A DNA stretch of 64,000 nt from Escherichia coli. GTDB lineage: Bacteria > Pseudomonadota > Gammaproteobacteria > Enterobacterales > Enterobacteriaceae. Both the position numbers and the translations under genes were made by a program. Each line of letters opens with the position of its first letter. Position 1 is the stretch's first letter. The notes under the pieces are model-generated. The model did not search any database, was not told where the DNA came from, and saw only the letters and a list, made by a program, of their open reading frames with translations. Shown here one piece after another: positions 24,308-64,000 of the stretch. The stretch is from assembly GCF_030384885.1 (NCBI RefSeq), contig NZ_CP128613.1; one strand, 5' to 3'.

Positions 24308-24561
24308 AAATAAATTAGCCTGATGGCCTGAACTACTGGGCCATTAGGGTATTGGGTTATGCTATTTGTCATCCTTTTAATTGCGATAATGCAGGCTTAA
24401 TTTACAGAATTAAACACTTTTTTATCCGCTGATTTTGTTTTAAATCACAATGTTATCTCAGAGATGACTCATAACTTCGGATTTCTATGAAAATATTGAC
24501 GTAATTTTGCTTTTCTCTCGTTAGAATAGCGCGCACAAGGAACTGTGAAAAAGGAGTGGCA

Positions 24562-25452
24562 ATGATCAAGAAGACAACGGAAATTGATGCCATCTTGTTA
24601 AATCTCAATAAGGCTATCGATGCCCACTACCAGTGGCTGGTGAGTATGTTTCACAGCGTGGTCGCGAGAGATGCCAGTAAGCCAGAAATAACGGATAACC
24701 ATTCTTATGGACTGTGCCAGTTTGGTCGGTGGATTGATCATCAGGGGCCACTCGATAACGATGAATTACCTTACGTTCGGCTAATGGATTCTGCCCATCA
24801 ACATATGCATAACTGTGGTCGGGAATTAATGCTGGCTATTGTTGAAAATCGCTGGCATGACGCACATTTCGACGCCTTTCAGGAAGGGTTGCTTTCTTTT
24901 ACTGCGGCATTAACCGATTACAAAATTTATTTGCTGACGATCCGTAGCAATATGGATGTTTTGACGGGTTTGCCGGGGCGTCGGGTTCTTGATGAATCCT
25001 TCGATCATCAGTTACGCAATGCTGAACCTCTGAATCTTTATTTAATGTTGTTGGATATTGACCGATTTAAATTGGTTAATGATACCTACGGGCATTTAAT
25101 CGGCGATGTAGTATTACGCACCCTCGCAACTTACTTAGCCAGTTGGACGCGCGATTACGAAACGGTTTATCGCTACGGGGGCGAAGAATTTATCATTATT
25201 GTCAAAGCGGCTAATGATGAAGAAGCATGTCGTGCAGGTATCAGAATTTGCCAGTTAGTCGATAACCATGCCATCACACATTCTGAAGGGCATATCAACA
25301 TTACCGTGACAGCAGGTGTGAGTCGCGCATTTCCTGAAGAATCTCTGGATGTGGTCATTGGAAGAGCGGACAGGGCAATGTATGAGGGTAAGCAAACCGG
25401 AAGAAATCGCTGCATGTTTATTGACGAACAAAATGTGATTAACCGAGTTTAA
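24562..25452 (+). CDS. dgcZ: Zinc-sensing diguanylate cyclase DgcZ (YdeH)
   Basis: 296 aa from MIKKTTEIDAILLNLNKAIDAHYQW (CZB domain), with GGEEF active site (YRYGGEEFIIIV). Confidence 0.94.
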   Translation: MIKKTTEIDAILLNLNKAIDAHYQWLVSMFHSVVARDASKPEITDNHSYGLCQFGRWIDHQGPLDNDELPYVRLMDSAHQHMHNCGRELMLAIVENRWHDAHFDAFQEGLLSFTAALTDYKIYLLTIRSNMDVLTGLPGRRVLDESFDHQLRNAEPLNLYLMLLDIDRFKLVNDTYGHLIGDVVLRTLATYLASWTRDYETVYRYGGEEFIIIVKAANDEEACRAGIRICQLVDNHAITHSEGHINITVTAGVSRAFPEESLDVVIGRADRAMYEGKQTGRNRCMFIDEQNVINRV

Positions 25453-50327: not shown

Positions 50328-50812
50328 GAGTATTGGTATTCTTATTTCCCTTCTTTAGAGCTGGCTTGTTAAATGCCAGCTTGCAGATTCATCGTTCCAT
50401 CACCAGTACTAAATTCAAGGGAAAATTGCTATTTTTCTTAAAGCATTAAGCATAACCCTTATTTTATAGCGAATATTCCTAAAGGCATTAATGGATGAAA
50501 AAGGGTTTTAATAAACTTCTGTTTTTAGCAATTAGTGCTATTCTTTGTTAAATATGATGATGATAATCTTCTTATTGAAAGAAACAGTTTTCTTATTAAG
50601 CAACAATAACTCATGGTTCATTTTTAAATAAAATAAGAACTATGCGATTTTTAATCTATCGATTAGAAAGTATTAGCAAATTAGCCAAATTGACACCTTC
50701 CCACCTCCAACCAACACTCAATACAGACCTCTGACAACTTAATAAGTTTCATTTTTAACGTCTGATGACTCATCTCTTTCGTGGCTGTATTGTTTGTATA
50801 TGGAGCGTTTAT

Positions 50813-53800
50813 ATGAATAGAATCTATCGCGTGATATGGAATTGCACCCTACAGGTATTTCAGGCCTGCTCGGAATTAACTCGCAGGGTAGGTAAAACAT
50901 CAACGGTTAATTTGCGTAAATCCTCTGGATTGACAACGAAATTCAGTAGATTGACGCTGGGTGTTTTGCTGGCACTAAGCGGTTCAGCGTCTGGTGCGAG
51001 TCTGGAAGTTGATAATGGTCAGATTACCAATATTAATACTGATGTTGCTTACGATGCCTACCTGGTTGGGTGGTATGGCACTGGAGTGCTTAATATTTTG
51101 GCTGGCGGTAATGCCTCCTTAACCACTATTACTACCAGCGTCATTGGTGGTAATGAGGACTCAGAGGGCACCGTTAACGTTTTGGGTGGCACCTGGCGAT
51201 TGTATGATAGCGGAAATAATGCAAGGCCTTTAAATGTGGGTCAATCCGGAACGGGGACGCTGAATATTAAACAGAAGGGTCACGTTGACGGAGGATATTT
51301 AAGGATAGGTTCTTCGACAGGAGGCGTCGGGACGGTCAATGTTGAAGGAGAGGACTCGGTTCTGACGACCGAATTATTCGAAATAGGGAGTTACGGTACA
51401 GGCTCATTAAATATTACGGATAAGGGTTACGTCACGAGTTCAATAGTCGCCATTGTAGGATATCAGGCGAACAGTAATGGTAAGCTTGTCGTTGAAAAGG
51501 GTGGCGAGTGGCTAATAAAAAATAATGATTCCTCAATTGAATTTCAAATTGGTAATCAAGGGACGGGCGAAGCAACTATTCGCGATGGGGGGCTAATTAC
51601 GGCTGAAAATACGATTATCGGTGGCAACCTCACCGGTATCGGAACCCTGAATGTGCAGGATCAAGACTCTGTCATCACGGTACGCAGACTCTATAATGGA
51701 TATTTCGGTAATGGCACAGTCAATATTTCCAATAATGGACTGATTAATAATAAAGAATATTCATTGGTGGGCGTTCAGGACGGGTCCCACGGTGTCGTCA
51801 ACGTGACCGATAAAGGGCATTGGAATTTCCTCGGAACGGGCGAAGCTTTCCGCTATATCTATATCGGTGATGCTGGCGACGGTGAACTTAATGTCTCGAG
51901 TGAAGGCAAAGTAGATTCGGGAATTATCACTGCGGGGATGAAAGAAACAGGCACAGGCAACATTACTGTTAAGGATAAGAACTCCGTTATCACTAATCTC
52001 GGAACTAATCTTGGTTATGACGGCCACGGCGAAATGAATATCAGTAATGAGGGGCTTGTTGTCAGCAACGGAGGAAGCTCACTCGGTTATGGAGAAACCG
52101 GCGTCGGGAAGGTTAGCATCACCACGGGGGGGATGTGGGAGGTCAATAAGAATGTCTATACCACTATTGGTGTTGCGGGCGTCGGAAACCTCAATATCAG
52201 CGATGGCGGTAAGTTCGTATCGCAAAATATTACTTTTTTGGGCGATAAAGCAAGCGGTATCGGCACACTGAACCTGATGGATGCGACATCATCGTTCGAT
52301 ACTGTAGGTATCAATGTCGGTAATTTTGGTAGCGGCATCGTAAATGTCAGTAATGGTGCCACCCTTAATTCAACGGGCTATGGATTTATCGGAGGAAATG
52401 CCTCCGGTAAGGGGATAGTTAATATTTCAACGGATAGTCTCTGGAATTTAAAAACGTCATCTACTAACGCCCAATTGCTACAGGTCGGTGTATTAGGCAC
52501 GGGTGAACTGAATATTACCACCGGAGGTATAGTTAAAGCGCGTGATACACAGATAGCTCTCAATGACAAAAGTAAGGGCGACGTGCGGGTGGATGGGCAG
52601 AACTCTCTTCTTGAAACATTCAATATGAACGTAGGGACGACTGGCACAGGTACGTTAACCCTGACGAATAACGGCACGCTGAATGTCGAAGGTGGAGAAG
52701 TTTACTTAGGTGTTTTTGAGCCTGCTGTAGGAACGCTAAACATTGGTGCTGCTCACGGTGAGGTGGCGGCAGATGCCGGGTTTATCACCAATGCGACGAA
52801 AGTGGAGTTTGGTCTTGGCGAAGGCGTTTTTGTCTTTAATCATACCAATAACAGTGATGCCGGCTACCAGGTCGATATGCTGATTACGGGTGACGATAAA
52901 GACGGAAAAGTGATGCATGATGCAGGCCATACGGTGTTCAATGCAGGGAATACTTATAGCGGTAAAACGCTGGTCAATGACGGCCTCCTGACTATTGCGT
53001 CACATACGGCAGATGGGGTAACAGGCATGGGTTCGAGTGAAGTAACCATTGCAAGCCCCGGTACGCTCGACATTCTCGCATCAACGAACAGCGCAGGAGA
53101 TTACACGCTGACCAATGCGCTCAAAGGCGATGGCTTGATGCGAGTGCAGCTGTCATCCTCCGACAAAATGTTTGGCTTTACCCATGCAACAGGAACTGAA
53201 TTCGCCGGTGTTGCCCAACTGAAAGACAGTACCTTCACACTGGAACGCGACAACACCGCTGCGCTTACTCACGCGATGCTTCAGTCTGACAGTGAAAATA
53301 CCACATCGGTAGAAGTGGGAGAGCAATCCATTGGTGGACTAGCCATGAATGGCGGTACGCTCACTTTCGATACGGATATACCTGCTGCGACGCTTGCGGA
53401 GGGATATATCAGCGTCGATACACTGGTTGTCGGCGCGGGTGACTACACCTGGAAAGGCCGTAACTATCAGGTAAACGGGACGGGCGACGTGCTTATCGAC
53501 GTGCCTAAACCGTGGAATGATCCCATGGCGAATAACCCTCTGACTACGCTCAATTTGCTGGAACACGATGATAGCCATGTCGGCGTTCAACTGGTGAAGG
53601 CGCAAACGGTTATTGGGTCGGGTGGCTCATTAACGTTACGTGATTTACAGGGCGACGAGGTGGAAGCGGACAAAACGTTACACATTGCACAAAACGGAAC
53701 AGTGGTCGCCGAGGGTGATTATGGATTCCGACTCACGACCGCACCTGGTGATGGTTTGTATGTTAACTATGGGCTGAAAGCGCTGAACATCCATGGTGGG

Positions 53801-56233
53801 CAAAAGCTGACGTTAGCCGAACATGGCGGAGCCTATGGCGCAACGGCCGATATGTCGGCAAAAATCGGTGGTGAAGGGGATCTGGCAATCAATACGGTGC
53901 GACAGGTTTCGCTTTCCAACGGTCAGAACGACTATCAGGGGGCAACCTATGTTCAGATGGGGACATTACGTACCGATGCGGATGGCGCGCTGGGCAATAC
54001 TCGGGAACTGAACATCAGCAACGCGGCCATCGTCGATCTTAATGGATCGGAGCAGACGGTAGAGACATTCACCGGGCTGATGGGTTCGACTATTTTGTTC
54101 AAAGAAGGTTCGCTGACGGTGAATAAAGGTGGGATCAGTCAGGGCGAACTGACAGGTGGCGGAAACCTGAATGTTTCAGGGGGAACACTGGCTATCGAGG
54201 GGCTTAATGCACGCTACAATGCGTTAACCAGCATTAGCCCAAATGCGGAAGTCAGCCTCGACAATACGCAGGGGTTAGGCAGAGGAAATATTGCCAATGA
54301 CGGTCTGTTAACGCTAAAAAACGTGACCGGCGAACTGCGCAATAGCATAAGCGGTAAAGGTATCGTGAGCGCAACCGCCAGCACAGACGTAGAGCTGGAT
54401 GGCGATAATAGCCGCTTTGTGGGGCAATTCAACATCGATGCAGGCAGCGCGCTCAGCGTCAACGAGCAGAAAAACCTGGGTGATGCTTCCGTTATCAATA
54501 ATGGCCTGCTCACCATCGCCACTGAGCGTAGCTGGGCGATGACGCACAGTATCACCGGTAGCGGCGATGTGACAAAACTGGGGACCGGGATCCTGACTCT
54601 TAACAACGATTCCGCGGCGTATCAGGGTACGACGGATATCGTGGGTGGTGAAATTGCTTTCGGTTCCGACTCTGCCATTAATATGGCAAGTCAGCACATT
54701 AATATCCATAACAGCGGTGTGATGTCGGGAAATGTCACCACTGCAGGTGATGTGAACGTTATGCCTGGGGGGACACTGCGTGTCGCCAAAACCACTATCG
54801 GCGGCAATCTGGAGAATGGTGGCACGGTTCAAATGAATAGCGAAGGGGGGAAACCGGGGAATGTACTGACCGTTAACGGCAACTATACCGGAAACAATGG
54901 CCTGATGACGTTCAACGCGACGCTGGGCGGCGATAATTCACCCACGGATAAAATGAACGTGAAAGGCGATACCCAAGGGAACACTCGCGTTCGGGTTGAT
55001 AACATTGGCGGCGTCGGTGCACAAACGGTCAACGGTATTGAACTCATTGAGGTTGGCGGTAATTCTGCAGGCAACTTCGCGCTGACCACCGGAACTGTCG
55101 AAGCTGGGGCTTACGTCTACACACTGGCTAAAGGGAAGGGGAATGACGAGAAAAACTGGTATCTAACCAGTAAATGGGAAGGCGTAACGCCACCGGATAC
55201 ACCCGATCCCATCAATAATCCTCCTGCTGTGGATCCGGAAGGCCCATCAGTTTATCGCCCGGAGGCCGGAAGCTATATCAGCAACATTGCCGCAGCCAAC
55301 TCGCTGTTTAGCCATCGTTTACACGACCGTCTGGGTGAGCCGCAGTATACAGATTCACTGCATTCTCAGGGTTCGGCAAGCAGTATGTGGATGCGTCATG
55401 TCGGAGGGCACGAACGTTCAAGGGCCGGTGACGGTCAGCTAAATACACAGGCTAACCGCTATGTATTGCAGCTAGGCGGCGATTTGGCGCAGTGGAGTAG
55501 CAACGCGCAGGATCGCTGGCATCTCGGCATCATGGCAGGCTATGCCAATCAGCACAGTAATACTCAGAGTAATCGTGTGGGTTATAAATCGGATGGGCGC
55601 ATCAGCGGTTACAGCGCTGGGATGTACGCGACCTGGTATCAGAACGATGCGAATAAGACCGGCGCTTATGTTGACAGCTGGGCGCTGTATAACTGGTTTG
55701 ATAACAGCGTCAGTTCCGATAACCGTTCTGCTGACGACTATGATTCTCGCGGTGTGACGGCCTCTGTTGAGGGTGGATATACCTTTGAAGCGGGAACATT
55801 TAGCGGCAGCGAAGGGACGCTGAATACCTGGTACGTCCAGCCACAGGTGCAAATCACCTGGATGGGTGTGAAAGATTCTGACCATACCCGGAAAGACGGA
55901 ACACGCATTGAAACGGAAGGTGACGGAAACGTGCAAACTCGACTTGGGGTGAAAACCTACTTGAACAGTCATCACCAGCGCGACAATGGTAAACAGCGTG
56001 AGTTCCAGCCTTACATTGAAGCGAACTGGATCAACAACAGCAAAGTCTACGCCGTGAAGATGAATGGTCAAACCGTAAGCCGTGATGGTGCGCGTAATCT
56101 CGGTGAAGTACGTACCGGGGTTGAGGCGAAAGTAAATAACAACCTTAGCCTGTGGGGGAATGTTGGTGTGCAACTAGGTGATAAAGGCTATAGCGATACT
56201 CAGGGCATGCTGGGTGTGAAATATAGCTGGTAA
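50813..56233 (+). CDS. yneO: Full-length AIDA-I/pertactin-type (type Va) autotransporter adhesin; K-12 yneO (ydeK/ydeU) pseudogene locus
   Basis: 1806 aa from ATG 50813 (GGAG 8 nt upstream). It has an extended signal peptide (MNRIYRVIWNCTLQVFQACSELTRR...ALSGSASGA) and a long passenger with many G-x-G-T-L-N-I beta-helix repeats. A Pro-rich linker PPDTPDPINNPPAVDPEGP precedes a C-terminal beta-barrel ending GVKYSW. Confidence 0.88.
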   Translation: MNRIYRVIWNCTLQVFQACSELTRRVGKTSTVNLRKSSGLTTKFSRLTLGVLLALSGSASGASLEVDNGQITNINTDVAYDAYLVGWYGTGVLNILAGGNASLTTITTSVIGGNEDSEGTVNVLGGTWRLYDSGNNARPLNVGQSGTGTLNIKQKGHVDGGYLRIGSSTGGVGTVNVEGEDSVLTTELFEIGSYGTGSLNITDKGYVTSSIVAIVGYQANSNGKLVVEKGGEWLIKNNDSSIEFQIGNQGTGEATIRDGGLITAENTIIGGNLTGIGTLNVQDQDSVITVRRLYNGYFGNGTVNISNNGLINNKEYSLVGVQDGSHGVVNVTDKGHWNFLGTGEAFRYIYIGDAGDGELNVSSEGKVDSGIITAGMKETGTGNITVKDKNSVITNLGTNLGYDGHGEMNISNEGLVVSNGGSSLGYGETGVGKVSITTGGMWEVNKNVYTTIGVAGVGNLNISDGGKFVSQNITFLGDKASGIGTLNLMDATSSFDTVGINVGNFGSGIVNVSNGATLNSTGYGFIGGNASGKGIVNISTDSLWNLKTSSTNAQLLQVGVLGTGELNITTGGIVKARDTQIALNDKSKGDVRVDGQNSLLETFNMNVGTTGTGTLTLTNNGTLNVEGGEVYLGVFEPAVGTLNIGAAHGEVAADAGFITNATKVEFGLGEGVFVFNHTNNSDAGYQVDMLITGDDKDGKVMHDAGHTVFNAGNTYSGKTLVNDGLLTIASHTADGVTGMGSSEVTIASPGTLDILASTNSAGDYTLTNALKGDGLMRVQLSSSDKMFGFTHATGTEFAGVAQLKDSTFTLERDNTAALTHAMLQSDSENTTSVEVGEQSIGGLAMNGGTLTFDTDIPAATLAEGYISVDTLVVGAGDYTWKGRNYQVNGTGDVLIDVPKPWNDPMANNPLTTLNLLEHDDSHVGVQLVKAQTVIGSGGSLTLRDLQGDEVEADKTLHIAQNGTVVAEGDYGFRLTTAPGDGLYVNYGLKALNIHGGQKLTLAEHGGAYGATADMSAKIGGEGDLAINTVRQVSLSNGQNDYQGATYVQMGTLRTDADGALGNTRELNISNAAIVDLNGSEQTVETFTGLMGSTILFKEGSLTVNKGGISQGELTGGGNLNVSGGTLAIEGLNARYNALTSISPNAEVSLDNTQGLGRGNIANDGLLTLKNVTGELRNSISGKGIVSATASTDVELDGDNSRFVGQFNIDAGSALSVNEQKNLGDASVINNGLLTIATERSWAMTHSITGSGDVTKLGTGILTLNNDSAAYQGTTDIVGGEIAFGSDSAINMASQHINIHNSGVMSGNVTTAGDVNVMPGGTLRVAKTTIGGNLENGGTVQMNSEGGKPGNVLTVNGNYTGNNGLMTFNATLGGDNSPTDKMNVKGDTQGNTRVRVDNIGGVGAQTVNGIELIEVGGNSAGNFALTTGTVEAGAYVYTLAKGKGNDEKNWYLTSKWEGVTPPDTPDPINNPPAVDPEGPSVYRPEAGSYISNIAAANSLFSHRLHDRLGEPQYTDSLHSQGSASSMWMRHVGGHERSRAGDGQLNTQANRYVLQLGGDLAQWSSNAQDRWHLGIMAGYANQHSNTQSNRVGYKSDGRISGYSAGMYATWYQNDANKTGAYVDSWALYNWFDNSVSSDNRSADDYDSRGVTASVEGGYTFEAGTFSGSEGTLNTWYVQPQVQITWMGVKDSDHTRKDGTRIETEGDGNVQTRLGVKTYLNSHHQRDNGKQREFQPYIEANWINNSKVYAVKMNGQTVSRDGARNLGEVRTGVEAKVNNNLSLWGNVGVQLGDKGYSDTQGMLGVKYSW

Positions 56234-56447: not shown

Positions 56448-56714
56448 ATGATGAGCTTTCAGAAGATCTATAGCCCAACGCAATTAGCGAATGCAATGAA
56501 ACTGGTTCGTCAGCAAAATGGCTGGACGCAGAGCGAGCTGGCGAAAAAAATCGGTATTAAGCAGGCGACAATTTCCAATTTCGAAAACAATCCTGACAAT
56601 ACCACGCTCACGACATTTTTTAAGATTTTACAGTCGCTTGAACTCTCAATGACGCTATGCGACACGAAAAATGCCTCGCCAGAATCAACAGAACAGCAAG
56701 ATCTGGAGTGGTAA
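56448..56714 (+). CDS. hipB: Antitoxin / HTH-XRE repressor HipB
   Basis: 88 aa from MMSFQKIYSPTQLANAMKLVRQQNGWTQSELAKKIG... Confidence 0.94.
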   Translation: MMSFQKIYSPTQLANAMKLVRQQNGWTQSELAKKIGIKQATISNFENNPDNTTLTTFFKILQSLELSMTLCDTKNASPESTEQQDLEW

Positions 56715-58036
56715 TGCCTAAACTTGTCACTTGGATGAACAACCAGCGGGTAGGCGAGTTAACGAAGTTAGCCAATGGCGCGCACACCTTTAAGTATGCA
56801 CCGGAGTGGTTAGCCAACCGTTATGCCAGACCGTTATCACTTTCGCTGCCATTGCAGAGGGGGAATATCACCTCTGATGCCGTATTTAACTTCTTCGATA
56901 ACCTGTTACCCGATAGCCCGATTGTACGTGACCGGATCGTTAAACGTTATCATGCTAAATCCAAGCAACCGTTTGATTTATTGTCAGAAATAGGGCGAGA
57001 TAGCGTTGGTGCCGTAACGTTATTACCCGAAAATGAAACCATAACGCGCCCGATAATGGCATGGGAACAGCTCACTGAAGCCAGGCTTGAAGAAGTATTA
57101 ACGGCTTATAAAGCAGATATCCCTCTAGGCATGATTAGAGAAGAAAATGACTTTCGCATCTCGGTTGCTGGCGCGCAGGAGAAGACAGCGCTGCTCAGAA
57201 TAGGCAATGACTGGTGCATTCCGAAAGGAATAACGCCGACGACGCACATCATTAAATTACCGATTGGCGAAATCAGGCAGCCCAATGCGACGCTCGATCT
57301 CAGCCAAAGCGTTGATAATGAGTATTACTGTCTGCTGCTGGCGAAAGAACTTGGGTTGAATGTGCCGGACGCAGAAATCATTAAAGCGGGAAATGTGCGC
57401 GCGTTAGCGGTCGAACGTTTTGACAGGCGTTGGAATGCTGAGCGAACGGTTTTACTTCGCTTGCCACAGGAGGATATGTGTCAGACATTCGGTTTACCTT
57501 CATCGGTGAAATATGAATCAGATGGAGGCCCAGGCATCGCGCGGATCATGGCTTTTTTGATGGGGTCCAGCGAGGCGCTGAAAGATCGCTATGATTTTAT
57601 GAAGTTTCAGGTGTTCCAGTGGTTGATTGGCGCAACGGATGGCCATGCAAAAAACTTCTCCGTATTTATTCAGGCTGGCGGCAGTTATCGACTCACGCCA
57701 TTTTACGACATCATTTCAGCATTTCCGGTATTGGGTGGCGCAGGAATACACATCAGCGATCTCAAACTGGCAATGGGGCTTAACGCATCCAAAGGCAAAA
57801 AAACGGCAATCGATAAAATTTATCCGCGACATTTTCTGGCGACAGCAAAGGTGCTGAAATTTCCGGAAGTGCAGATGCATGAAATCCTGAGTGACTTTGC
57901 CAGAATGATTCCGGCAGCACTGGATAACGTGAAGACTTCATTACCGACAGATTTTCCGGAGAACGTGGTGACGGCAGTTGAAACCAATGTGTTGAGGTTG
58001 CACCGTCGGTTAAGCCGAGAATACGGTATTAAGTAA
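56714..58036 (+). CDS. hipA: Ser/Thr kinase toxin HipA
   Basis: 440 aa from MPKLVTWMNNQRVGEL. The ATG overlaps the hipB TAA by 1 nt. G22, S150, D291 and D309 are all present by hand count, so this is the wild-type allele and not hipA7. Confidence 0.94.
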   Translation: MPKLVTWMNNQRVGELTKLANGAHTFKYAPEWLANRYARPLSLSLPLQRGNITSDAVFNFFDNLLPDSPIVRDRIVKRYHAKSKQPFDLLSEIGRDSVGAVTLLPENETITRPIMAWEQLTEARLEEVLTAYKADIPLGMIREENDFRISVAGAQEKTALLRIGNDWCIPKGITPTTHIIKLPIGEIRQPNATLDLSQSVDNEYYCLLLAKELGLNVPDAEIIKAGNVRALAVERFDRRWNAERTVLLRLPQEDMCQTFGLPSSVKYESDGGPGIARIMAFLMGSSEALKDRYDFMKFQVFQWLIGATDGHAKNFSVFIQAGGSYRLTPFYDIISAFPVLGGAGIHISDLKLAMGLNASKGKKTAIDKIYPRHFLATAKVLKFPEVQMHEILSDFARMIPAALDNVKTSLPTDFPENVVTAVETNVLRLHRRLSREYGIK

Positions 58037-58112
58037 GATATGGGGTTTGGACGTTGTTAATGAGCAGGACAATCATGACCGCCAACGACTGGATTCTGCC
58101 TTGGTTTATGTT

Positions 58113-58144
58113 GGTGCGCATAATGTCAACGCGTTATGTTGAAA
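58113..58144 (+). other. dif: dif-like Xer site forming the left junction (attL) of the filamentous prophage
   Basis: GGTGCGCATAA (exact XerC arm of E. coli dif), then TGTCAACGCG (10 nt), then TTATGTTGAAA (9/11 to XerD arm TTATGTTAAAT). It starts 76 nt after the hipA stop, where K-12 dif lies by my recollection. Confidence 0.75.
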
Positions 58145-58178
58145 AGGCCGCTGCGAAAATCGAATCCCGCAGCGGCCT
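58141..58178 (-). terminator. Intrinsic terminator of the 309-aa cargo gene
   Basis: Perfect 11-bp stem AGGCCGCTGCG/CGCAGCGGCCT (58145-58155 / 58168-58178). On the minus strand it is followed by TTTTC, and that run overlaps the XerD-like arm. Confidence 0.75.
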
Positions 58179-58210
58179 CTTTAGCATAACGTCATTGTGC
58201 GAACCAATAG

Positions 58211-59140
58211 CTACTTTTTCGTATAACTCTCTTCGCATTTAGCCAAAAACAGCAGATTAGTAGCGGTTAAATGAAGGGTATAACTCGCTAAATACTCAGG
58301 AACTTTTGTTATTTCTGCCCCTTGTCCATGTCCACCTTCTTTATTTCGAATGGTTGGAATACCACTCTCAAGTAGAATTCTTATTGAAGAAAATTGATTC
58401 TGGAGGTATTCAGGTACTAAATTATTTGCCAAACAACTGTTAATTAGTTTTTTAGCTGTGTCAGTATCATTAAATTGCCAAGAATGTTTTTTATGTATGG
58501 CTTTCATTAGACTTTCAAAAGATTTGAGGCAATCATTTAAACATTCTTTATATCGCTGATGTCTATAATGCTCATGGGCGGATAAAAACTCATCGTTTGC
58601 TCCGTTATAACTCTTGTTCTTACCAAGAATCTGAAGCGTAGGCTTTACAACATCAGAATGAATGAATTGTGAGTCAACTTTAACCAACTCTCCTGACTCA
58701 AATTGATATCCAAGACCTGCTTCTTTAAACCTGATATTAAGTTCTTCAATAGCATCATCAGGACTTTGCTTTACTAACCCTCTGAATTTCCACTCATTTG
58801 ATCTTATATACCCGTCTATCAGTTTGAAACATATCTCAATGATATCCAAGCATTTTTCATGATCTCTCTCAGCTAGGAAATAGTCAAAAATTGCCCCGAA
58901 ATTCGATTCAGGATACTGTTTGAGAGAGAATACACCATATTCCTTACACAGCGTTTTATGAACGAGTCTGTAAAGCTTACTTGCTTCCGTTTCATAGTCA
59001 CTATCTTCACCGATAGTATCTCTTACAATATGAACAACCTGAACACGAAATGCATTTGGTATATTCGTGTATTGGTAAACATCAGCTACTTCACCTCTTA
59101 ATTTTTTTTGTCTTTTTGAAAATAATTCGAATATAGCCAA
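58211..59140 (-). CDS. AbiJ-NTD4-like / HEPN-motif protein (candidate abortive-infection or toxin RNase)
   Basis: 309 aa from a TTG start with GAGGA 7 nt upstream. The N-terminus MAIFELFSKRQKKLRGEVADVYQYTNIPNAFRVQVVHI resembles the AbiJ N-terminal domain 4 / STM4504-type family (from memory). The C-terminal R265-N-K-E-G-G-H271 (58328-58348) fits the HEPN R-x4-6-H motif. The gene is AT-rich: hand counts gave 18/60 and 23/60 G+C on two lines. Confidence 0.7.
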   Translation of the reverse strand: MAIFELFSKRQKKLRGEVADVYQYTNIPNAFRVQVVHIVRDTIGEDSDYETEASKLYRLVHKTLCKEYGVFSLKQYPESNFGAIFDYFLAERDHEKCLDIIEICFKLIDGYIRSNEWKFRGLVKQSPDDAIEELNIRFKEAGLGYQFESGELVKVDSQFIHSDVVKPTLQILGKNKSYNGANDEFLSAHEHYRHQRYKECLNDCLKSFESLMKAIHKKHSWQFNDTDTAKKLINSCLANNLVPEYLQNQFSSIRILLESGIPTIRNKEGGHGQGAEITKVPEYLASYTLHLTATNLLFLAKCEESYTKK

Positions 59141-59223
59141 TTTATAATCCTCAAAGATATGCCATTAATATGTCTGAGTTGATGAAAATCACACCGCTTT
59201 TACAGTCGTTTTCCACGGTGGAG

Positions 59224-59646
59224 TTACCAGTAATATGAGTTTCTTCTGTGCCACCAATAAAGAAGTCCGTATCCAATGATAAGAATTCCGAAAAACATCA
59301 ACGACATTCCCCAGCCAGTTCCGTACCACGAAACCATATCATCGAAAACTAACCCACCCATTTCACGAACTCCGGCTGCTTCCTTAAGAATTGGTTTGAA
59401 TACCGGAATCAGAAGGGCGATCGCAAGTGGAGCACCCCAGCGAACAAGACCAGTTTCCATTTTGATCCCGAAAAAGATCCCCGCACCGACAACAAGCAAC
59501 CAGACTATCAGGCCAGGCGCAGTTTCTAGTGCTGTTTGCCATTCAACATCGAAAGTTTTCATTAGCCAGGCAACAACTGCCAGACAGAAAGCAAATACGC
59601 CTACAACAACCAGTTCAACGCCGCTTGTTTCGTTATTTCTACTCAT
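59224..59646 (-). CDS. Small four-TM membrane protein of unknown function (prophage cargo)
   Basis: 140 aa from ATG 59646 (MSRNNETSGVELVVVGVFAFCLAVVAWLM...), with four hydrophobic helices. The 189-aa ORF-track form would overlap the upstream gene by 59 nt. It is GC-richer than its neighbours (33/60 on one line). Confidence 0.6.
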   Translation of the reverse strand: MSRNNETSGVELVVVGVFAFCLAVVAWLMKTFDVEWQTALETAPGLIVWLLVVGAGIFFGIKMETGLVRWGAPLAIALLIPVFKPILKEAAGVREMGGLVFDDMVSWYGTGWGMSLMFFGILIIGYGLLYWWHRRNSYYW

Positions 59647-59674
59647 CCTTTTGATCCTTTGTTGCTGTTCAAAA

Positions 59675-59717
59675 TCCGCACAATAAAGAACGTGCAGTGT
59701 AGGTAATACTGCACGTT
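59675..59717 (-). terminator. Hairpin (terminator or attenuator) between the RHH gene and the 4-TM gene
   Basis: Perfect 10-bp stem AACGTGCAGT/ACTGCACGTT (59689-59698 / 59708-59717) with a 9-nt loop, followed on the minus strand by CTTTATTGTG. Confidence 0.55.
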
Positions 59718-59734
59718 TGTACCATTCGTGGTAC

Positions 59735-59917
59735 TTAATCCTTTTGTTTGGCAGACATGAGATCTTCTGCTGCATCTTTAGAGTAGTTATCAATCAGATA
59801 ACCTAAAATCTCTGTCCATGTAATTGTTTTTCCTAGTTTTACACTGGCATTTATAGCCAGTCGTTCTAGTTTCATTTTTCTTTCTTCCGTCACGTTATAA
59901 GTCGTGCGCTTTGCCAT
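59735..59917 (-). CDS. Small ribbon-helix-helix-like protein, probable prophage regulator
   Basis: 60 aa, MAKRTTYNVTEERKMKLERLAINASVKLGKTITWTEILGYLIDNY... shows a beta-strand then two helices. It is divergent from the replication gene, the position of repressors such as RstR in integrating inoviruses. Confidence 0.5.
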   Translation of the reverse strand: MAKRTTYNVTEERKMKLERLAINASVKLGKTITWTEILGYLIDNYSKDAAEDLMSAKQKD

Positions 59918-59964
59918 TTTTTACGCTCGTTCAATGCAATATTTGAAGTGAGTATACATGCTCA

Positions 59965-60043
59965 TGAACTCATATCATCCAAGCCTCTTGAACTCACTAG
60001 CTCACTGGTGTAATGTTTAAACACTAATGAACTACTGAACTCA
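59965..60043. repeat. Iterated TGAACTCA motifs in the divergent phage control region
   Basis: TGAACTCA occurs at 59965, 59989 and 60036, and TGAACTAC at 60028, all in the same orientation, between the RHH gene and gII. Confidence 0.6.
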
Positions 60044-60086
60044 TGTGTTAGTAAGTCGTCATTTTTGTAATTTTGAGGATTTATTC

Positions 60087-61139
60087 GTGATCGATTGGCT
60101 TACCGGGATTTTCCCTTGCACACACAAACCGCTTCCGGCGGGGAGTGTTGTCAGCGTTGATGCTGACGGTGCAATTGAGTGGGAAACCGTTAAGCGACTG
60201 ACTGTTCGCGGTTCGCATGAAGCAACGATGAAAGTACGATCGATAGGATCTAATGGCGAAGGTAAAGCGACACATTTGTACATTGATGGTAATCCTTCCA
60301 AGTTTCTGCAGGGGCATTCTGTTGTTGGGTCGGATGATATACAAGGGCTCATGTTGACGGTCTATGCCAGGATTTTATCCTTATTGAATATTCCTCATGA
60401 TTTAGCGGCTTATAAAGCCGTTATGGCAGGTCAGTATAAAATTTCACGTATTGACATTAATTACATGTATTCATTATCTACGCTGGAAAATGTCAGATCA
60501 TGGCTTTATGCCGCCGAATTTAAAGCTAAAACACGCCATGGTCGCGCATGTGGGAAAGGCGGTACAGTTTATTTAGGTAAAAACTCCCGTCGATGGAGTC
60601 TGAAATTTTATTCAAAATATGATGAACACGTTTCTGGTAAAAAAGGGCACCAGATAGCCGAAGAGTTTGTACGAGCCGGGTTACTGGACTGGACGAAAGA
60701 TAAATTACGTATTGAATTAACATTAAGAACAACTGAGCTTATTGATTTAAATTTAACGCTTGGCGCTAACTGGAATATGAAAACACCACGTCAATTATTC
60801 TCTGAATATGTAGGGAGAATAGAAATGAATCAGAATGCTATTTTAAGTGATGAAAAAATAACGAAACTGCCAAGAAAAATACAGTCAACTTATTTACTTT
60901 GGAAACAAGGGGCTAACATGAAAGAAATGTTACCTCATAACACTTTTTATCGCCATAGAAGAGAATTGCTTTCGTTCGGTATCGATATTAATTTCTATTG
61001 TGATTCACCAGACTCTAATAACGTTGTTCCGCTAATAAGAACGCTGGAAGCCAAGCCAGCGGAAATCCCCTTATGGATTTATGAGAAAGGTTTTATTTTC
61101 GATTACAACCGTATTTCGCACGCCAGTAGCTGGCATTAA
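60087..61139 (+). CDS. Filamentous-phage replication initiation protein (gpII homologue)
   Basis: 350 aa from GTG 60087 (GAGGA 7 nt upstream), VIDWLTGIFPC... Matches to f1 gpII motifs: GNPSKFLQGHSVVGS vs ASPAKVLQGHNVFGT, ISRIDINY vs ISRIDATF, NNVVPLIRT vs NNVVPLVRF. Confidence 0.85.
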   Translation: MIDWLTGIFPCTHKPLPAGSVVSVDADGAIEWETVKRLTVRGSHEATMKVRSIGSNGEGKATHLYIDGNPSKFLQGHSVVGSDDIQGLMLTVYARILSLLNIPHDLAAYKAVMAGQYKISRIDINYMYSLSTLENVRSWLYAAEFKAKTRHGRACGKGGTVYLGKNSRRWSLKFYSKYDEHVSGKKGHQIAEEFVRAGLLDWTKDKLRIELTLRTTELIDLNLTLGANWNMKTPRQLFSEYVGRIEMNQNAILSDEKITKLPRKIQSTYLLWKQGANMKEMLPHNTFYRHRRELLSFGIDINFYCDSPDSNNVVPLIRTLEAKPAEIPLWIYEKGFIFDYNRISHASSWH

Positions 61140-61150
61140 AGGAAAGTAAT

Positions 61151-61468
61151 ATGTCTAATTATGGTCTTTTCGTTAAGGGTAAAATGTTGGGAGCCCGCCA
61201 ACGTAATAAAGTTAATGGTCAGGGCTATTATAATGAAATTGGTATTGGCCTTGAAATACCTGATGGTTTTGGTGGTACAAAGCAGGATCAAATTATTATT
61301 CGAGTTTCTCAGGCTCTCGTTAACGCAGGTCTAATGAACCAGGCGAATGCTTTCATTGGGAAATTAGTTCAAATTCCTGTCTATGTCCGTGCGTGGTCAA
61401 TGGAGGGTAGGGAAGGTGTAACTTATAATGTTTCTTCCGATGGTGGCATCGCAGAGATCAAAGGTTAA
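61151..61468 (+). CDS. Probable ssDNA-binding protein (gpV position)
   Basis: 105-aa ORF directly after gII and before the gVII/gIX analogues. The assignment is by position only; I saw no obvious similarity to f1 g5p. Confidence 0.5.
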   Translation: MSNYGLFVKGKMLGARQRNKVNGQGYYNEIGIGLEIPDGFGGTKQDQIIIRVSQALVNAGLMNQANAFIGKLVQIPVYVRAWSMEGREGVTYNVSSDGGIAEIKG

Positions 61469-61470
61469 AT

Positions 61471-61557
61471 ATGGACGATGTTATTCAAATTTTGATAGCG
61501 TCTGGCATCGTTATTTCTTTTGGCCTCGGCGCGATTACTGCGGGGGTCTTTCGTTAA
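61471..61557 (+). CDS. Minor coat protein gpVII homologue
   Basis: The 28-aa sequence MDDVIQILIASGIVISFGLGAITAGVFR resembles the f1 g7p C-terminus (...FALGIIAGGQR). Its stop overlaps the next ATG (TAATG). Below the ORF-track cutoff. Confidence 0.65.
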   Translation: MDDVIQILIASGIVISFGLGAITAGVFR

Positions 61558-61652
61558 TGTATATCGTTTATTTCTTCGGGGCTTATACCTTTGGTTTTGC
61601 CCTTTTCTATGCGGTCGGTTCATTTAAATCATTTTCTGACCGATTAATGTAA
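61557..61652 (+). CDS. Minor coat protein gpIX homologue
   Basis: 31-aa hydrophobic peptide MYIVYFFGAYTFGFALFYAVGSFKSFSDRLM. Its size and position match f1 g9p. Confidence 0.6.
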   Translation: MYIVYFFGAYTFGFALFYAVGSFKSFSDRLM

Positions 61653-61671
61653 CCTTAATGGAGTTATTCCT

Positions 61672-61914
61672 ATGAAAATTCTGTCTACTGTTAAATATAA
61701 AGTTGCTCTGGCTTCAACTGCGCTTTTTATTTCTGCAAGTTCTTTTGCGGCTGAAGGCGCTACAGGTGGTACTGATTATGCAGGCCAGGCAATGGATGCT
61801 TTGTTGACTCAGGCAAATGATCTCATTGGTAAAGTATGGCCTGTTGTTGTGGCTGTGGTTGGCGCTGGGCTTGCCATTCGTATTTTCAAAAAATTCTCTT
61901 CAAAAGCGGTTTGA
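61672..61914 (+). CDS. Major coat protein gpVIII homologue
   Basis: 80-aa precursor with signal peptide ...ISASSFA|AEGATGG, an acidic N-terminus, a hydrophobic core, and a basic C-terminus [11 protein letters not shown] (f1: KLFKKFTSKAS). Confidence 0.88.
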
Positions 61915-61923
61915 ATTTCACTC

Positions 61924-61947
61924 AGGGGCACTCGTTGCCCCTTTATT
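61924..61947 (+). terminator. Intrinsic terminator after gVIII
   Basis: Stem AGGGGCA/TGCCCCT followed by TTTATT, in the same position as the strong terminator after gene VIII in Ff phages. Confidence 0.75.
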
Positions 61948-61960
61948 AAAGCGGGTTACT

Positions 61961-63211
61961 ATGAAAAGGAAAATATTAATTCTTTCCGCTGTCCTCATTT
62001 CTCCTTTTTCACATGCTGAGTCATGGGAAAGCATTACTAAATCCACTTATCAAAGTTCTGCCTATGCTGAAAGTAAGCAAATAACCAATCAGGATGGCTC
62101 TAAGATAACGGTTTACTATATTGATGCTGCTATGCAGGCCTCCGCTTGTCAGGGTGCTAAATCCAGTGCTCAGAGTGTATTTACTCGGATTAAACCAACT
62201 TATGAGGGTATCTGGCCTGATTCTGAATTCCGTCTTGTTTTTACTGGCGATTGTACTTACAGCGATTCACCAGGGCAGAAGGATAAATATTGGTCTTTAA
62301 CGGCTTATATTGTTGGTAATATTCAGCGTTCTGTTCCTGATGAAAAACCTACTGACCCGACACCAGAAGAAATTTGTGAAGCGAAGCCGCCAGAAGAAGG
62401 TGTATTTAATAATGTTGATTCATATGATGGTGGTCGCTATATCTACTATAACGGCTGTGAATATGAGGCTACTGGTGTCATTGTTTGTCAGGGTGATGGT
62501 ACTGTTTGCGCTGCAACATGGAAGCCTACAGGTGCTGTAGCTGACCCCTCTGATAAACCCTCAACCCCCCAAAATGGTGGTGGTGAGTCTGGCGGTGGTG
62601 AGTCCGGCGGTGGTGAGTCCGGTGGTGGTGAGTCTGGCGGTGGTGAGTCCGGTGGCGGTAGTTCTGGCGGTGGCTCTAGTGGTTCCAGTCTTTCTAAAGG
62701 TGATATTCAGTCTGCGATCGAAGGTGCTTCACCCAAAATAGCCAGCGATATTCATGATAAATTAACGGAGAAAGACACTTCATCAGATGATAAAAAAAAT
62801 GCCGATGAACAAACCAGGAATAATATAAATCGTCTTGACGATTCCATTAACAATCTTACGCGGGGGGCTGGCCGTTTTGCTGACCCTTCAGGTGGTGATT
62901 CTCGTTATGGAAAGGGCGACTCTGAATTAGATGGCGCTTCTACTTTAGCTGATTCTGAATTGGGAATTGAAAAGGATTCTCACGGTGCTTTATGGGAAGC
63001 ATTTTTAAATAAAGGTGCTATGCTGCCTAATTTACCCAATGGTAACGGCTGCTCTGATTTTATTATTTTTCCCGGAGAGGTTTATCAGATTGATATTGGT
63101 TGCGATAAATTACTGACTATTAAAGATGTTCTTTCATGGGTTTTTTATTGCCTTACGTTCTGGTATGTCTTTACTTCTTTAACTTCATTGCTTCGCAAAG
63201 GGGGTGAGTGA
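61961..63211 (+). CDS. Adsorption / minor coat protein gpIII homologue
   Basis: 416 aa from ATG 61961, with signal peptide [19 protein letters not shown]|ES and a Gly-rich linker. The C-terminal anchor [40 protein letters not shown] resembles f1 IDCDKINLFRGVFAFLLYVATFMYVFSTFANILRNKES. Confidence 0.88.
62576..62689 (+). repeat. Tandem 15-bp coding repeats ([10 protein letters not shown] linker of gpIII)
   Basis: Five successive GGTGGTGAGTC(T/C)GG(C/T) units followed by degenerate GGGSS units encode (GGGES)5[10 protein letters not shown]. Confidence 0.9.
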
Positions 63212-63552
63212 TGCCTTTATTATTAGGTATTCCTGCATTGTTGCGTTTTCTTATTGGTCTTGTTCCTTTGTTTATTGGCTATGTGGCGAGTTTTTTAGCT
63301 CGACTTGCTACCAGAACAGGATTAATTGCCTTTGCATTGGTCGCATTAATTACAACAACTGTTACGCTTTTAATGCAGTACCTTGCTGAGGTCATGTATA
63401 ACGGTTTACCTGCTGATTTCTCCCATTTAATGGCGTCTGTATTGCCTGACCATTTTCAGGCGTGTGTTAACGTTATTATGGTTACTCGTATCAGTGTTTT
63501 TGTTTTCGATTTAAAACAAAAATTTCTTGATTATGCAAACAGGGTGATTTAA
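63211..63552 (+). CDS. Minor coat protein gpVI homologue
   Basis: 113 aa, [17 protein letters not shown]...VFVFDLKQKFLDY vs f1 MPVLLGIPLLLRFLGFL...IFIFDVKQKIVSY. The ATG overlaps the gIII TGA. Confidence 0.88.
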   Translation: MPLLLGIPALLRFLIGLVPLFIGYVASFLARLATRTGLIAFALVALITTTVTLLMQYLAEVMYNGLPADFSHLMASVLPDHFQACVNVIMVTRISVFVFDLKQKFLDYANRVI

Positions 63553-64000
63553 ATGGCGGTTTATGTAGTAACAGGCAAATTAGGCTCAGGCAAGACACTT
63601 GTTAGTGTTTCCAGAATACAGGAAAGACTTGCTAAGGGTTGTCCTGTTGCCACTAATCTTGATCTTAAATTGCATAATATGCCTATGGTTGGGCGTTATG
63701 CGAAAAAAACGCGCGTTATTCGCATTCCTGACAAACCTTCATTAAATGATTTACTTGCTATTGGTACTGGGAATACATCTTACGATGAATCCCGTAATGG
63801 CCTCCTTGTACTTGATGAATGTGGTACTTGGTTTAATTCCCGCTCATGGGGTGATAAAGACAGGCAACCTGTTATTGACTGGTTTTTACATGCCAGAAAA
63901 TTAGGCTGGGATATTATATTTTTGATTCAGGATATTTCGATAATGGATAAGCAAGCTCGTCTGGCGCTTGCTGAGCATGTTGTTTATTGTCGCCGTTCAG
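63553..64000 (+). CDS. Assembly ATPase gpI (Zot-like) homologue, 5' part only
   Basis: Hand translation gives MAVYVVTGKLGSGKTLVSVSRIQERLAKGCPVATNLDL...LLVLDECGTWFNSRSWGDKDRQPVIDWFLHARKLGWDIIFLIQD..., near-identical in motifs to f1 g1p, including Walker A GKLGSGKT. It is absent from the ORF track because it runs off the window. Confidence 0.9.
   Translation, partial: MAVYVVTGKLGSGKTLVSVSRIQERLAKGCPVATNLDLKLHNMPMVGRYAKKTRVIRIPDKPSLNDLLAIGTGNTSYDESRNGLLVLDECGTWFNSRSWGDKDRQPVIDWFLHARKLGWDIIFLIQDISIMDKQARLALAEHVVYCRRS

Follow-up and report, generated by a model that had tools for sequence, protein, structure and literature searches.

The DNA analysed here is a window of 64,000 nucleotides from Escherichia coli (contig NZ_CP128613.1, assembly GCF_030384885.1), and its right-hand end, from position 58113 onwards, very probably represents the left two thirds of a filamentous prophage of the UPφ group, inserted at the chromosomal dif site as a Xer-exploiting integrated element (IMEX) of the CTXφ type. 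Filamentous prophages at E. coli dif have reportedly been on record since CUS-1 in 2002. Elements of this kind have already been published, together with their site, family and likely route of integration, and the main finding is in this sense an ordinary one; what is new is modest, and consists of the identification of a cargo gene, the sharp borders of the slot in which it lies, a three-way mosaic and a candidate replication origin. The sequence comparisons set out below establish where the prophage lies, which genes it contains, how it is related to known families, the architecture of its hairpins and the borders of the mosaic.

The prophage at dif and its gene set

An earlier note on this DNA had proposed a chromosomal inovirus at dif, adjoining hipBA, and this was borne out by colinearity with K-12 followed by an inovirus gene set. 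The hipB (56448-56714) and hipA (56714-58036) genes are followed by a spacer of 76 nt and then by GGTGCGCATAATGT at 58113-58126, and the K-12 sequence is colinear with the window through hipA, the spacer and GGTGCGCATAATGT, diverging right after, where it reads on as ATATTATGTTAAAT and the window as CAACGCGTTATGTTGAAAAGG. In K-12 GGTGCGCATAATGT constitutes the first half (14 of 28 bp) of dif, placing the junction exactly at the K-12 dif position; it occurs once in the 64-kb window as compared to 0.05 occurrences expected by chance, and no complete dif was found in the window when up to three mismatches were allowed. At the right end of related prophages, by comparison, a perfect 28-bp dif is preceded by phage DNA. 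A CTX-type IMEX is characterised by the lack of an integrase and by insertion at dif with a hybrid attL on one side and an intact dif (attR) on the other: the hybrid attL lies in the window, the intact attR dif was seen in complete relatives, and an integrase was found neither in the visible element nor among the annotations of complete copies in close relatives, from which its absence over the full length is read. The suggestion of an integrase-less, Xer-exploiting element made in the earlier note is thereby supported, as is its expectation that the secretin gene gIV and an intact dif (attR) lie beyond 64000, given that near-identical complete prophages continue with the rest of gI, gIV and two small open reading frames (ORFs), and then with a further copy or a perfect dif. 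To the right of 64000 we expect the rest of gI, gIV, h1 and h2, followed by a second attP junction or GGTGCGCATAATGTATATTATGTTAAAT.

Three reverse ORFs to the right of dif are followed by a forward block consisting of gII, gV, gVII, gIX, gVIII, gIII, gVI and gI. All of the latter were named by Pfam with the exception of gIX, which was recognised by its similarity to gIX of IKe. The features of the element are as follows.

58111-58207, plus strand: attL, corresponding to the phage attP forked hairpin (inverted repeats, single-stranded DNA fold, colinearity with K-12 dif)
58211-59140, minus strand: accessory gene, 309 aa, AbiJ_NTD4 and DUF7014/HEPN-fold protein (NCBIfam STM4504/CBY_0614)
59224-59646, minus strand: predicted membrane protein, 140 aa, PHROG 4174, belonging to the left-arm cassette
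59666-59745, plus strand: conserved non-coding segment of 80 nt; candidate (+)-strand origin and right border of the cargo slot
59735-59917, minus strand: h3, ORF of 60 aa, PHROG 2503, at the position of the repressor gene
59918-60086, no strand assigned: divergent regulatory intergenic region with at least three copies of CT(C/A)(A/T/C)TGAACTCA
60087-61139, plus strand: gII, rolling-circle replication initiator, 350 aa (Pfam Phage_CRI 7e-71, G2P_X_C 2e-29)
61151-61468, plus strand: gV, single-stranded DNA-binding protein, 105 aa (Pfam 3e-51)
61471-61557, plus strand: gVII, minor coat protein, 28 aa (Pfam Inovirus_G7P_2 3e-11)
61557-61652, plus strand: gIX, minor coat protein, 31 aa, 57% aa identity to IKe gIX; its ATG overlaps the gVII stop codon
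61672-61914, plus strand: gVIII, major coat protein precursor, 80 aa (Pfam Phage_coatGP8 8e-19)
61961-63211, plus strand: gIII, attachment protein, 416 aa (Pfam G3P_pilus-bind 2e-25, Phage_Coat_A 9e-06)
63211-63552, plus strand: gVI, minor coat protein, 113 aa (Pfam DUF5455 7e-09)
63553-64000, plus strand: gI, assembly ATPase with Zot domain (Pfam Zot 9e-41); N-terminal 149 aa, the window ending inside the gene

All ORFs that are visible as a whole are of full length and share 96.5-100% identity with their counterparts in complete-genome prophages, while gI runs off at 64000. The gIII product has the domain order of IKe, with the pilus-binding domain first and the TolA-binding domain second. 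Owing to its position, which is that of rstR in CTXφ and of YPO2273 in Ypfφ, h3 would be the repressor gene; the 60-aa ORF is 100% identical in the prophage of E. coli UM146 and in a metagenomic contig considered below (JARKOR010000214.1), and CUS-1/Ypfφ-type elements carry at this position a 148-aa helix-turn-helix (HTH) protein. Candidate operators or promoters are found between h3 and gII in the form of a 12-nt direct repeat (59961-60043, three copies or more) that ends in TGAACTCA; such copies are retained in a Brenneria element, which has h3, and not in Ypfφ-type elements with their HTH repressor, and no conservation between UPφ-type and Ypfφ-type elements was found in 59918-60086. No Rfam family matched within 57900-64000, and a simple promoter scan of the region, which returned fewer sites than chance, was not used. 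Directly upstream of hipBA the window encodes an autotransporter of 1,822 aa (50765-56233), the counterpart of which in the closest genome is annotated in RefSeq as ECSE_1600 family autotransporter, and a frameshifted version of which is annotated in at least one relative, strain 1368KP.

Relationship to UPφ, Ypfφ and IKe

The segment from gVII to gI (61471-64000) exhibits 99.0% DNA identity, over 100% of its length, to three places in the genome of E. coli ECONIH2, a strain that Shapiro and Putonti (2020, PMC7307601) cite by name as having three UPφ prophages in tandem. UPφ phages were described in that study as tandem dif prophages of E. coli, Salmonella, Klebsiella, Citrobacter and Yersinia enterocolitica, with structural genes resembling those of IKe and I2-2 and with only gII and gV resembling Ypfφ (>85%); they further have a varying number of GGGES repeats in g3p, which is the hallmark of their gIII, two novel ORFs behind gIV, and reverse ORFs beside dif, of which h3 is almost universal (221 of 229 prophages) and h4 and h5 are variable. 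The split homology is found here as well. Ypfφ was recovered for comparison from a Y. pestis genome, in which it is present in tandem with a unit of 8,742 bp, agreeing with the published 8.7 kb, and it was established that gII and gV of the window are 86% and 94% identical to its proteins, that gVII, gIX, gVIII, gIII, gVI and gI have no match in it, and that gIV of the relatives matches weakly (27%); the DNA shared with Ypfφ is confined to gII/gV (80% nt identity), the attP hairpin and the 80-nt non-coding segment. The remaining genes are related to those of IKe, with aa identities of 70% for gVII, 57% for gIX, 59% for gVIII, 50% for gIII (full length, end to end), 52% for gVI, 66% for gI (80% for its visible N-terminal 149 aa) and 71% for gIV, and gII gives only a local match (24%) to IKe gII. 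The GGGES repeats take the form of a glycine-rich array at 62575-62673, in which five GGGES units are followed by GGGSS units; h1 and h2 are present between gIV and the dif end and 100% conserved in the three closest relatives (NZ_CP062855.1, UM146 and JARKOR010000214.1); and beside the conserved h3 the reverse cargo differs among strains. As far as sequence comparison goes the element is a UPφ virus, since its split homology, its GGGES repeats and its identity to ECONIH2 fit the published description, the near-identity of the core (~98% or more) to UPφ901-type phages being judged on ECONIH2 as a proxy for UPφ901 itself. With UPφ901 and the ECONIH2 prophages it shares the dif site, the gene order, the IKe/I2-2-like virion and assembly genes and the gII/gV shared with Ypfφ, in addition to the tandem arrays seen in relatives, the GGGES repeats, the reverse h3 and the variable reverse ORFs by dif. 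It differs in its cassette, which comprises an AbiJ-like/HEPN gene and the 140-aa membrane protein, and the UPφ paper contains no analysis of the attP hairpin, the origin or the nature of the accessory genes.

The phage genes that the earlier note had named, on a strong likeness to f1 gpI, gpVI, the gpIII C-terminus, gpVIII and gpII, were confirmed by Pfam in every case. The likeness itself is uneven and IKe is the closer free-living relative: identity to M13 amounts to 54% for gI (78% for the visible N-terminus), 51% for gIV, 48% for gVIII and 35% for gVI, whilst similarity to M13/f1 is limited to one stretch of 57 aa in gIII and to 53 aa at 32% in gII. IKe, I2-2 and the PEar phages (Lineavirus and relatives), as well as the Ff phages, have the same gVII-gIX-gVIII-gIII-gVI-gI-gIV order with homologous genes; however, they are episomal, are devoid of a dif-like site and of reverse accessory genes, and possess a different gII/gV/origin module. 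The nearest free phages by distant blastn were IKe, the Erwinia PEar phages and I2-2, with 66-68% DNA identity over about half of the query, and megablast of the element against 50,697 GenBank phage records returned nothing, CUS-1, Ypfφ and UPφ901 giving no match there.

The earlier note had pointed to the CUS-1/Ypfφ lineage, and the element could accordingly be viewed as a prophage of that lineage proper (O18:K1:H7 or Y. pestis) that has acquired a different accessory gene. Such kinship is real in part: the integrase-less insertion at dif, the nearly identical attP hairpin, gII and gV, the 80-nt segment with its hairpin and the reverse-oriented variable accessory region beside attL are common to both, and 58113-59745, the left arm, shares 98.5% identity with the corresponding arm in E. 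coli NC101, whose prophage is in turn 99.4% identical to Ypfφ over 7,502 bp and shows that E. coli, too, harbours the true CUS-1/Ypfφ backbone. It does not extend to the remaining backbone: from gVII to gI neither Ypfφ nor the NC101 element shows any detectable likeness to the window, and the near-identity to ECONIH2 and the 50-71% identity to IKe reported above are found instead. Between the two lineages gVII to gIV and the repressor gene are unrelated or barely related (60-aa h3 here, 148-aa HTH protein there). CUS-1 was published as 99% identical to Ypfφ, and the ~99% DNA identity over a core of ~7 kb (regulation, replication, morphogenesis and secretion) that marks this lineage is not displayed by the window; the O18:K1:H7 strains UTI89 and NU14 have only the 140-aa membrane gene in common with it. 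By these comparisons the CUS-1/Ypfφ assignment is already refuted for the virion and assembly module, and as an account of the whole element it is highly improbable. The UM146 prophage was at first taken as CUS-1 and was dropped in this role, being of the UPφ type according to PMC7307601 and to the comparison with Ypfφ.

The UPφ structural module was detected in 55 of 5,426 complete E. coli genomes (~1%), and the whole of a 7.6-kb query comprising hipBA and phage sequence was found in strains Res13-Lact-PEB17-18 (98.9%) and NCTC9104 (98.3%). Tandem copies are the rule in these relatives, the number of places per genome having a median of 2 and a maximum of 15. E. coli EC5502 (NZ_CP092647.1) has 15-16 separate prophage matches as compared to the usual 2-3 tandem copies, and 4-5 prophage matches in all lie on plasmids. 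The 14,488-bp E. coli plasmid record NZ_CP183160.1 contains Zot-like and minor-coat genes, 74% identical to gI of the window, and could be a different inovirus whose replicative form was entered as a plasmid. Two matches under other names, a contig of a Candidatus Nanosynbacter (Saccharibacteria) metagenome-assembled genome (MAG; JARKOR010000214.1) with the full UPφ gene set (97-100% aa identity) between E. coli dif flanks on both sides, and an Aerococcus MAG matched by gII alone (86%), are almost certainly mis-binned enterobacterial contigs. A Brenneria alni contig of 9,278 bp with the same attP hairpin at both ends is probably a complete circular or tandem unit; it joins a UPφ-type h3, intergenic region and gII (94%) to a third, unrelated structural module, which indicates that the regulatory-replication module is itself a shuffled unit.

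The attP hairpin and the route of integration

The left end of the element harbours two dif-like sites in inverted orientation. The first (58113-58144) reads GGTGCGCATAA-TGTCAACGCG-TTATGTTGAAA, with the host/phage junction after GGTGCGCATAATGT, and the second (58179-58205, minus strand), which lies 34 nt further on, reads GGTTCGCACAA-TGACG-TTATGCTAAAG. Intact attP, as present at junctions between tandem copies, consists of a perfect XerC arm GGTGCGCATAA, 10-11 variable bases and the XerD-like arm TTATGTTGAAA, the spacing of the arms in the duplex thus being 10-11 nt as compared to 6 nt in dif. The 97-nt region, when folded as single-stranded DNA, gives a single long hairpin (folding free energy -32.7 kcal/mol, z -7.6; none of 200 shuffled sequences folded as well) in which XerC arm pairs with XerC arm and XerD arm with XerD arm, the extra central bases of the first site forming a one-sided bulge. 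Junctions from 14 loci revealed this hairpin to be almost invariant across UPφ, Ypfφ and NC101-type elements, with most of the variation held in the bulge, and the diverged Brenneria alni element retains the same architecture (z -8.1) despite many base changes, two imperfect pairs of the E. coli hairpin being Watson-Crick pairs there. Two inverted dif-like sites, a forked (+)-strand hairpin and an unpaired centre, all typical of CTX-type attP, are therefore present. In Y. pestis attL contains the host XerC arm GGTGCACATAA and the junction between copies the phage arm GGTGCGCATAA, which places the crossover between arm position 6 and the variable central bases, i.e. on the XerC side. The bulge (58127-58133) was observed in two versions, TGTCAACGCG accompanying the AbiJ cassette on both backbones and TGTACGACTCG accompanying all other cassettes, Ypfφ included; this sorting by cassette indicates that the bulge variant travels with the cargo.

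Ypfφ and CUS-1φ have been listed as relatives of the CTX type, for which strand exchange is catalysed by XerC only and completed by replication, integration is irreversible, and phage is made by rolling-circle replication from tandem prophages (Das 2014, PMC4246890); the same type of integration is given for Ypfφ in the review of Derbise and Carniel (PMC4266046). Applied to the element in the window, the inverted sites at 58113-58144 and 58179-58205 of the packaged (+) strand would fold into a forked hairpin mimicking a dif duplex, and host XerC would exchange one pair of strands with chromosomal dif at the border between XerC arm and central region, the insertion then being fixed by replication. 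The product would be a hybrid attL and a regenerated dif at the far end, the latter open to further insertions and hence to the build-up of tandem arrays, and insertion would not be reversed as the hairpin site is masked in duplex DNA. Rolling-circle replication, driven by gII and running from one copy's origin to that of the next copy, would supply new genomes, which gI and gIV would export without lysis. The counterpart in Vibrio cholerae, CTXφ, likewise folds two inverted dif-like sites into a forked (+)-strand hairpin, crosses over on the XerC side, regenerates dif, forms tandem arrays and has a reverse repressor gene beside the replication gene, and hybrid genomes are likewise expected from rolling-circle replication across its tandem copies. 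It has no sequence relationship to the present element outside the Pfam-level gII and Zot families, its ctxAB genes lie at the far end, whereas the cargo here is located on the attL side between attP and the proposed origin, and the present element is known from sequence alone.

Some observations weigh against this assignment. The CTX-type classification of Ypfφ and CUS-1 was itself published on sequence, and the XerC-dependent, single-strand route for the phage group, and with it the irreversibility of the insertion in the window, is a prediction of the same kind. An alternative would be the route of VGJφ, in which the double-stranded replicative form recombines reversibly with dif through GGTGCGCATAA-N10-TTATGTTGAAA; the duplex does provide a perfect XerC arm and a XerD-like arm matching at 9 of 11 positions, and Ypfφ is reported as frequently episomal, and as unstable in many lineages of Y. 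pestis (PMC4266046). However, the arms are 10-11 bp apart as compared to 6 bp in dif, variation is confined to the spacer, as would be the case for an unpaired bulge, and the second inverted site completes a very stable fork that is conserved in a diverged relative; together with the published CTX-type classification (PMC4246890) this renders a VGJφ-type route improbable.

The window, moreover, stops inside gI, such that gIV, h1/h2, attR and the tandem state of the prophage are outside view, and decay does occur in this group: in the closest complete genome (NZ_CP062855.1) the second tandem copy has a disrupted gVI/gI region. In that array the second copy (24387-25419 of the extracted locus) has an altered gVI and a shortened gI, represented by ORFs of 336 and 705 nt, next to an intact first copy, from which it follows that copies in one array can decay independently. 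The element might, then, be a decaying remnant fixed at dif that has lost virion production, for which it may be argued that CTX-type insertions cannot excise and dead copies persist, that the right third of the window copy is unseen, and that strain PEC422 has an IS1 inside the element and PSJ-16 retains a fragment only. This is nonetheless unlikely, as the visible ORFs are complete, with 96.5-100% identity to copies in other host species and other complete genomes, as neither the attP hairpin, the conserved hairpin nor the regulatory region is damaged, and as virion DNA was present in the culture medium of a UPφ901 lysogen (PMC7307601). The UPφ prophage of the CTXφ type remains the reading adopted in what follows.

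The cargo slot and its borders

Alignment of 14 slots from 11 loci established that the reverse accessory genes occupy a sharply delimited slot. On the left, divergence begins right after the last base of the attP hairpin (...GCGAACCAA), and on the right the sequences become common again, whatever flanks them, at a hairpin ACGTGCAGT-GT(A/T)GGTAAT-ACTGCACGT. In the window this 27-nt hairpin reads ACGTGCAGT-GTAGGTAAT-ACTGCACGT (59690-59716), and it shows at most one loop change in all 13 loci that reach this point. It is part of the 80-nt segment 59666-59745, which is present in all lineages examined (E. coli, Y. pestis, Klebsiella, Brenneria and Phytobacter; fold z -4.7) and which includes a second hairpin at 59719-59734, directly behind the h3 stop codon. 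Eight different cassettes were seen in the slot:

AbiJ/HEPN protein and 140-aa membrane protein: this window, cargo 58208-59689
159-aa protein, zinc-ribbon protein and membrane protein: UM146, and copies 2 and 3 of ECONIH2
DUF6953 protein and a protein with a DpnII/MboI-like nuclease domain
Fic/Doc protein
two Ypfφ ORFs: Ypfφ
three sets without annotatable genes: Brenneria; Phytobacter; copy 1 of ECONIH2

Defence-like or toxin-like domains are encoded by four of the eight. The 140-aa membrane protein is common to UPφ-type, CUS-1-type and Klebsiella elements and absent from the variant with Doc cargo. Within the ECONIH2 array (243-25245 of the extracted locus) the dif-proximal (attL) copy has a cassette of its own, with ORFs of 234, 91 and 46 aa, and copies 2 and 3 have ORFs for the 159-aa, zinc-ribbon and 140-aa proteins; such mixed cassettes fit successive insertions of different phages or the formation of hybrids.

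The cargo gene of the window specifies a 309-aa protein which the earlier note had considered as a possible homologue of puvA, described there as an oppositely oriented accessory gene. Neither point stood: puvA of CUS-1 encodes a virion protein needed in receptor binding (PMC4266046), and the 309-aa protein combines AbiJ_NTD4 (8.6e-27, above the gathering score) with DUF7014 (1.1e-77), in addition to a match to the PADLOC defence-candidate family PDC-S32 (4.5e-10). Profile and fold comparison revealed both the AbiJ N-terminal domain and a C-terminal HEPN fold with an R-x4-6-H motif, the corresponding residues R265 and H271 being invariant in 27 homologues; a sequence search of solved structures gave nothing meaningful for the protein, and fold comparison alone was informative. 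More than 3,000 homologues are known, about 70% identical across Vibrio, Shewanella, Klebsiella and Halomonas. In V. cholerae they are found (74% identical) as single gene cassettes within the superintegron of chromosome 2, and in Enterobacteriaceae in small islands beside a tyrosine integrase; such stand-alone cassettes fit a self-contained, one-gene function. The enterobacterial islands immediately follow a pair of genes that are proBA-like, as judged by their AA_kinase/PUA and Aldedh domains. From its domains the protein has roughly even chances of being an AbiJ-like, single-gene abortive-infection RNase, in which case it would protect the lysogen from other phages.

The AbiJ cassette is present with at least 99.8% DNA identity in 17 E. 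coli records, only two of which have the UPφ structural module, and conversely in two of the 55 E. coli genomes with that module. Where its surroundings off the UPφ backbone were checked, in NC101, they proved to be a backbone of the CUS-1/Ypfφ type, and the 309-aa protein is 100% identical there. The window and NC101 are 98.5% identical over element positions 1-1633 (58113-59745) and thereafter alike in gII/gV only (80%), and NC101 and Ypfφ share 99.4% identity beginning at element position 1554, which places every breakpoint of this three-way mosaic inside the 80-nt segment 59666-59745.

This segment is also where the origin is probably situated. The earlier note had expected the origin beyond 64000, which is not supported; the hairpin at 59690-59716 would instead serve as (+)-strand origin for the shared gII, because a shared gII requires a shared origin, because the region upstream of gII is not conserved, and because of the parallel with CTXφ, where RstA nicks the apical loop of an origin hairpin and the origin adjoins the reverse repressor gene (PMC4439123). 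A location just upstream of gII was set aside, that region being unconserved between UPφ-type and Ypfφ-type elements in spite of a gII that is 86% identical.

From these observations we tentatively propose, as a view slightly less probable than its opposite, that the enterobacterial dif inoviruses (UPφ, CUS-1/Ypfφ and the Klebsiella, Brenneria and Phytobacter relatives) possess a dedicated cargo slot, that the hairpin bordering it is the (+) origin, and that cargo is shuffled by rolling-circle replication across tandem copies. With the order attP, cargo, origin, repressor and gII, replication running from one origin to that of the next copy would yield a genome with the backbone of the upstream prophage and the attP and cargo of the downstream one, and mixed arrays at dif would in this way shuffle cargo between otherwise unrelated backbones by a mechanism known from CTXφ hybrids. 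Hybrids of this kind would explain the movement of a cassette between two backbones as well as the mixed cassettes of ECONIH2, and the element in the window would itself be one, composed of a UPφ backbone and a cassette otherwise found off that backbone. Much of the cargo shuffled in this way resembles anti-phage defence, namely the AbiJ/HEPN protein, the DpnII/MboI-like nuclease-domain protein and the Fic/Doc protein. Several points tell against this proposal. The same cassette pattern would arise from ordinary homologous recombination at the conserved segment, and the replicative mechanism is accordingly put forward as a hypothesis; the segment could be a terminator, a minus-strand origin or a recombination hotspot, its assignment as origin drawing on conservation and analogy. 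PADLOC and Pfam found no defence-like domain in four of the eight cassettes (Ypfφ, Brenneria, Phytobacter and copy 1 of ECONIH2), by which the slot is not established as a defence hotspot, and for the 309-aa protein the structure model places the R-x5-H motif in a loop predicted with low confidence (residues 260-276, pLDDT <50) and the PADLOC match is to a candidate family.

Hypervariable, defence-rich regions (pHVRs) have been described for dif-integrating inoviruses of Vibrio (PMC12715192, PMC11630473), and have in common with the slot considered here a defined location, a turnover of accessory genes, many of them anti-phage or Abi-like, and horizontal exchange; they differ in that they were described for inoviruses associated with CTX-I/XafT. 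In the searchable literature no description was found of such a slot in the enterobacterial UPφ/CUS-1 phages, of where it is bounded or of what it contains, and no paper on UPφ accessory genes was found, UPφ being mentioned in the original paper and in two reviews only. The present analysis is of value for correct labelling, as accessory genes annotated as hypothetical are placed in a sharply bounded slot whose contents have been exchanged between two backbones that have only the replication module in common, and which in the source strain holds a putative abortive-infection RNase. If confirmed, this would extend to the Enterobacteriaceae the idea published for Vibrio that dif inoviruses pay their way through phage-defence genes, and would provide a simple replication-based mechanism for the exchange of cassettes.

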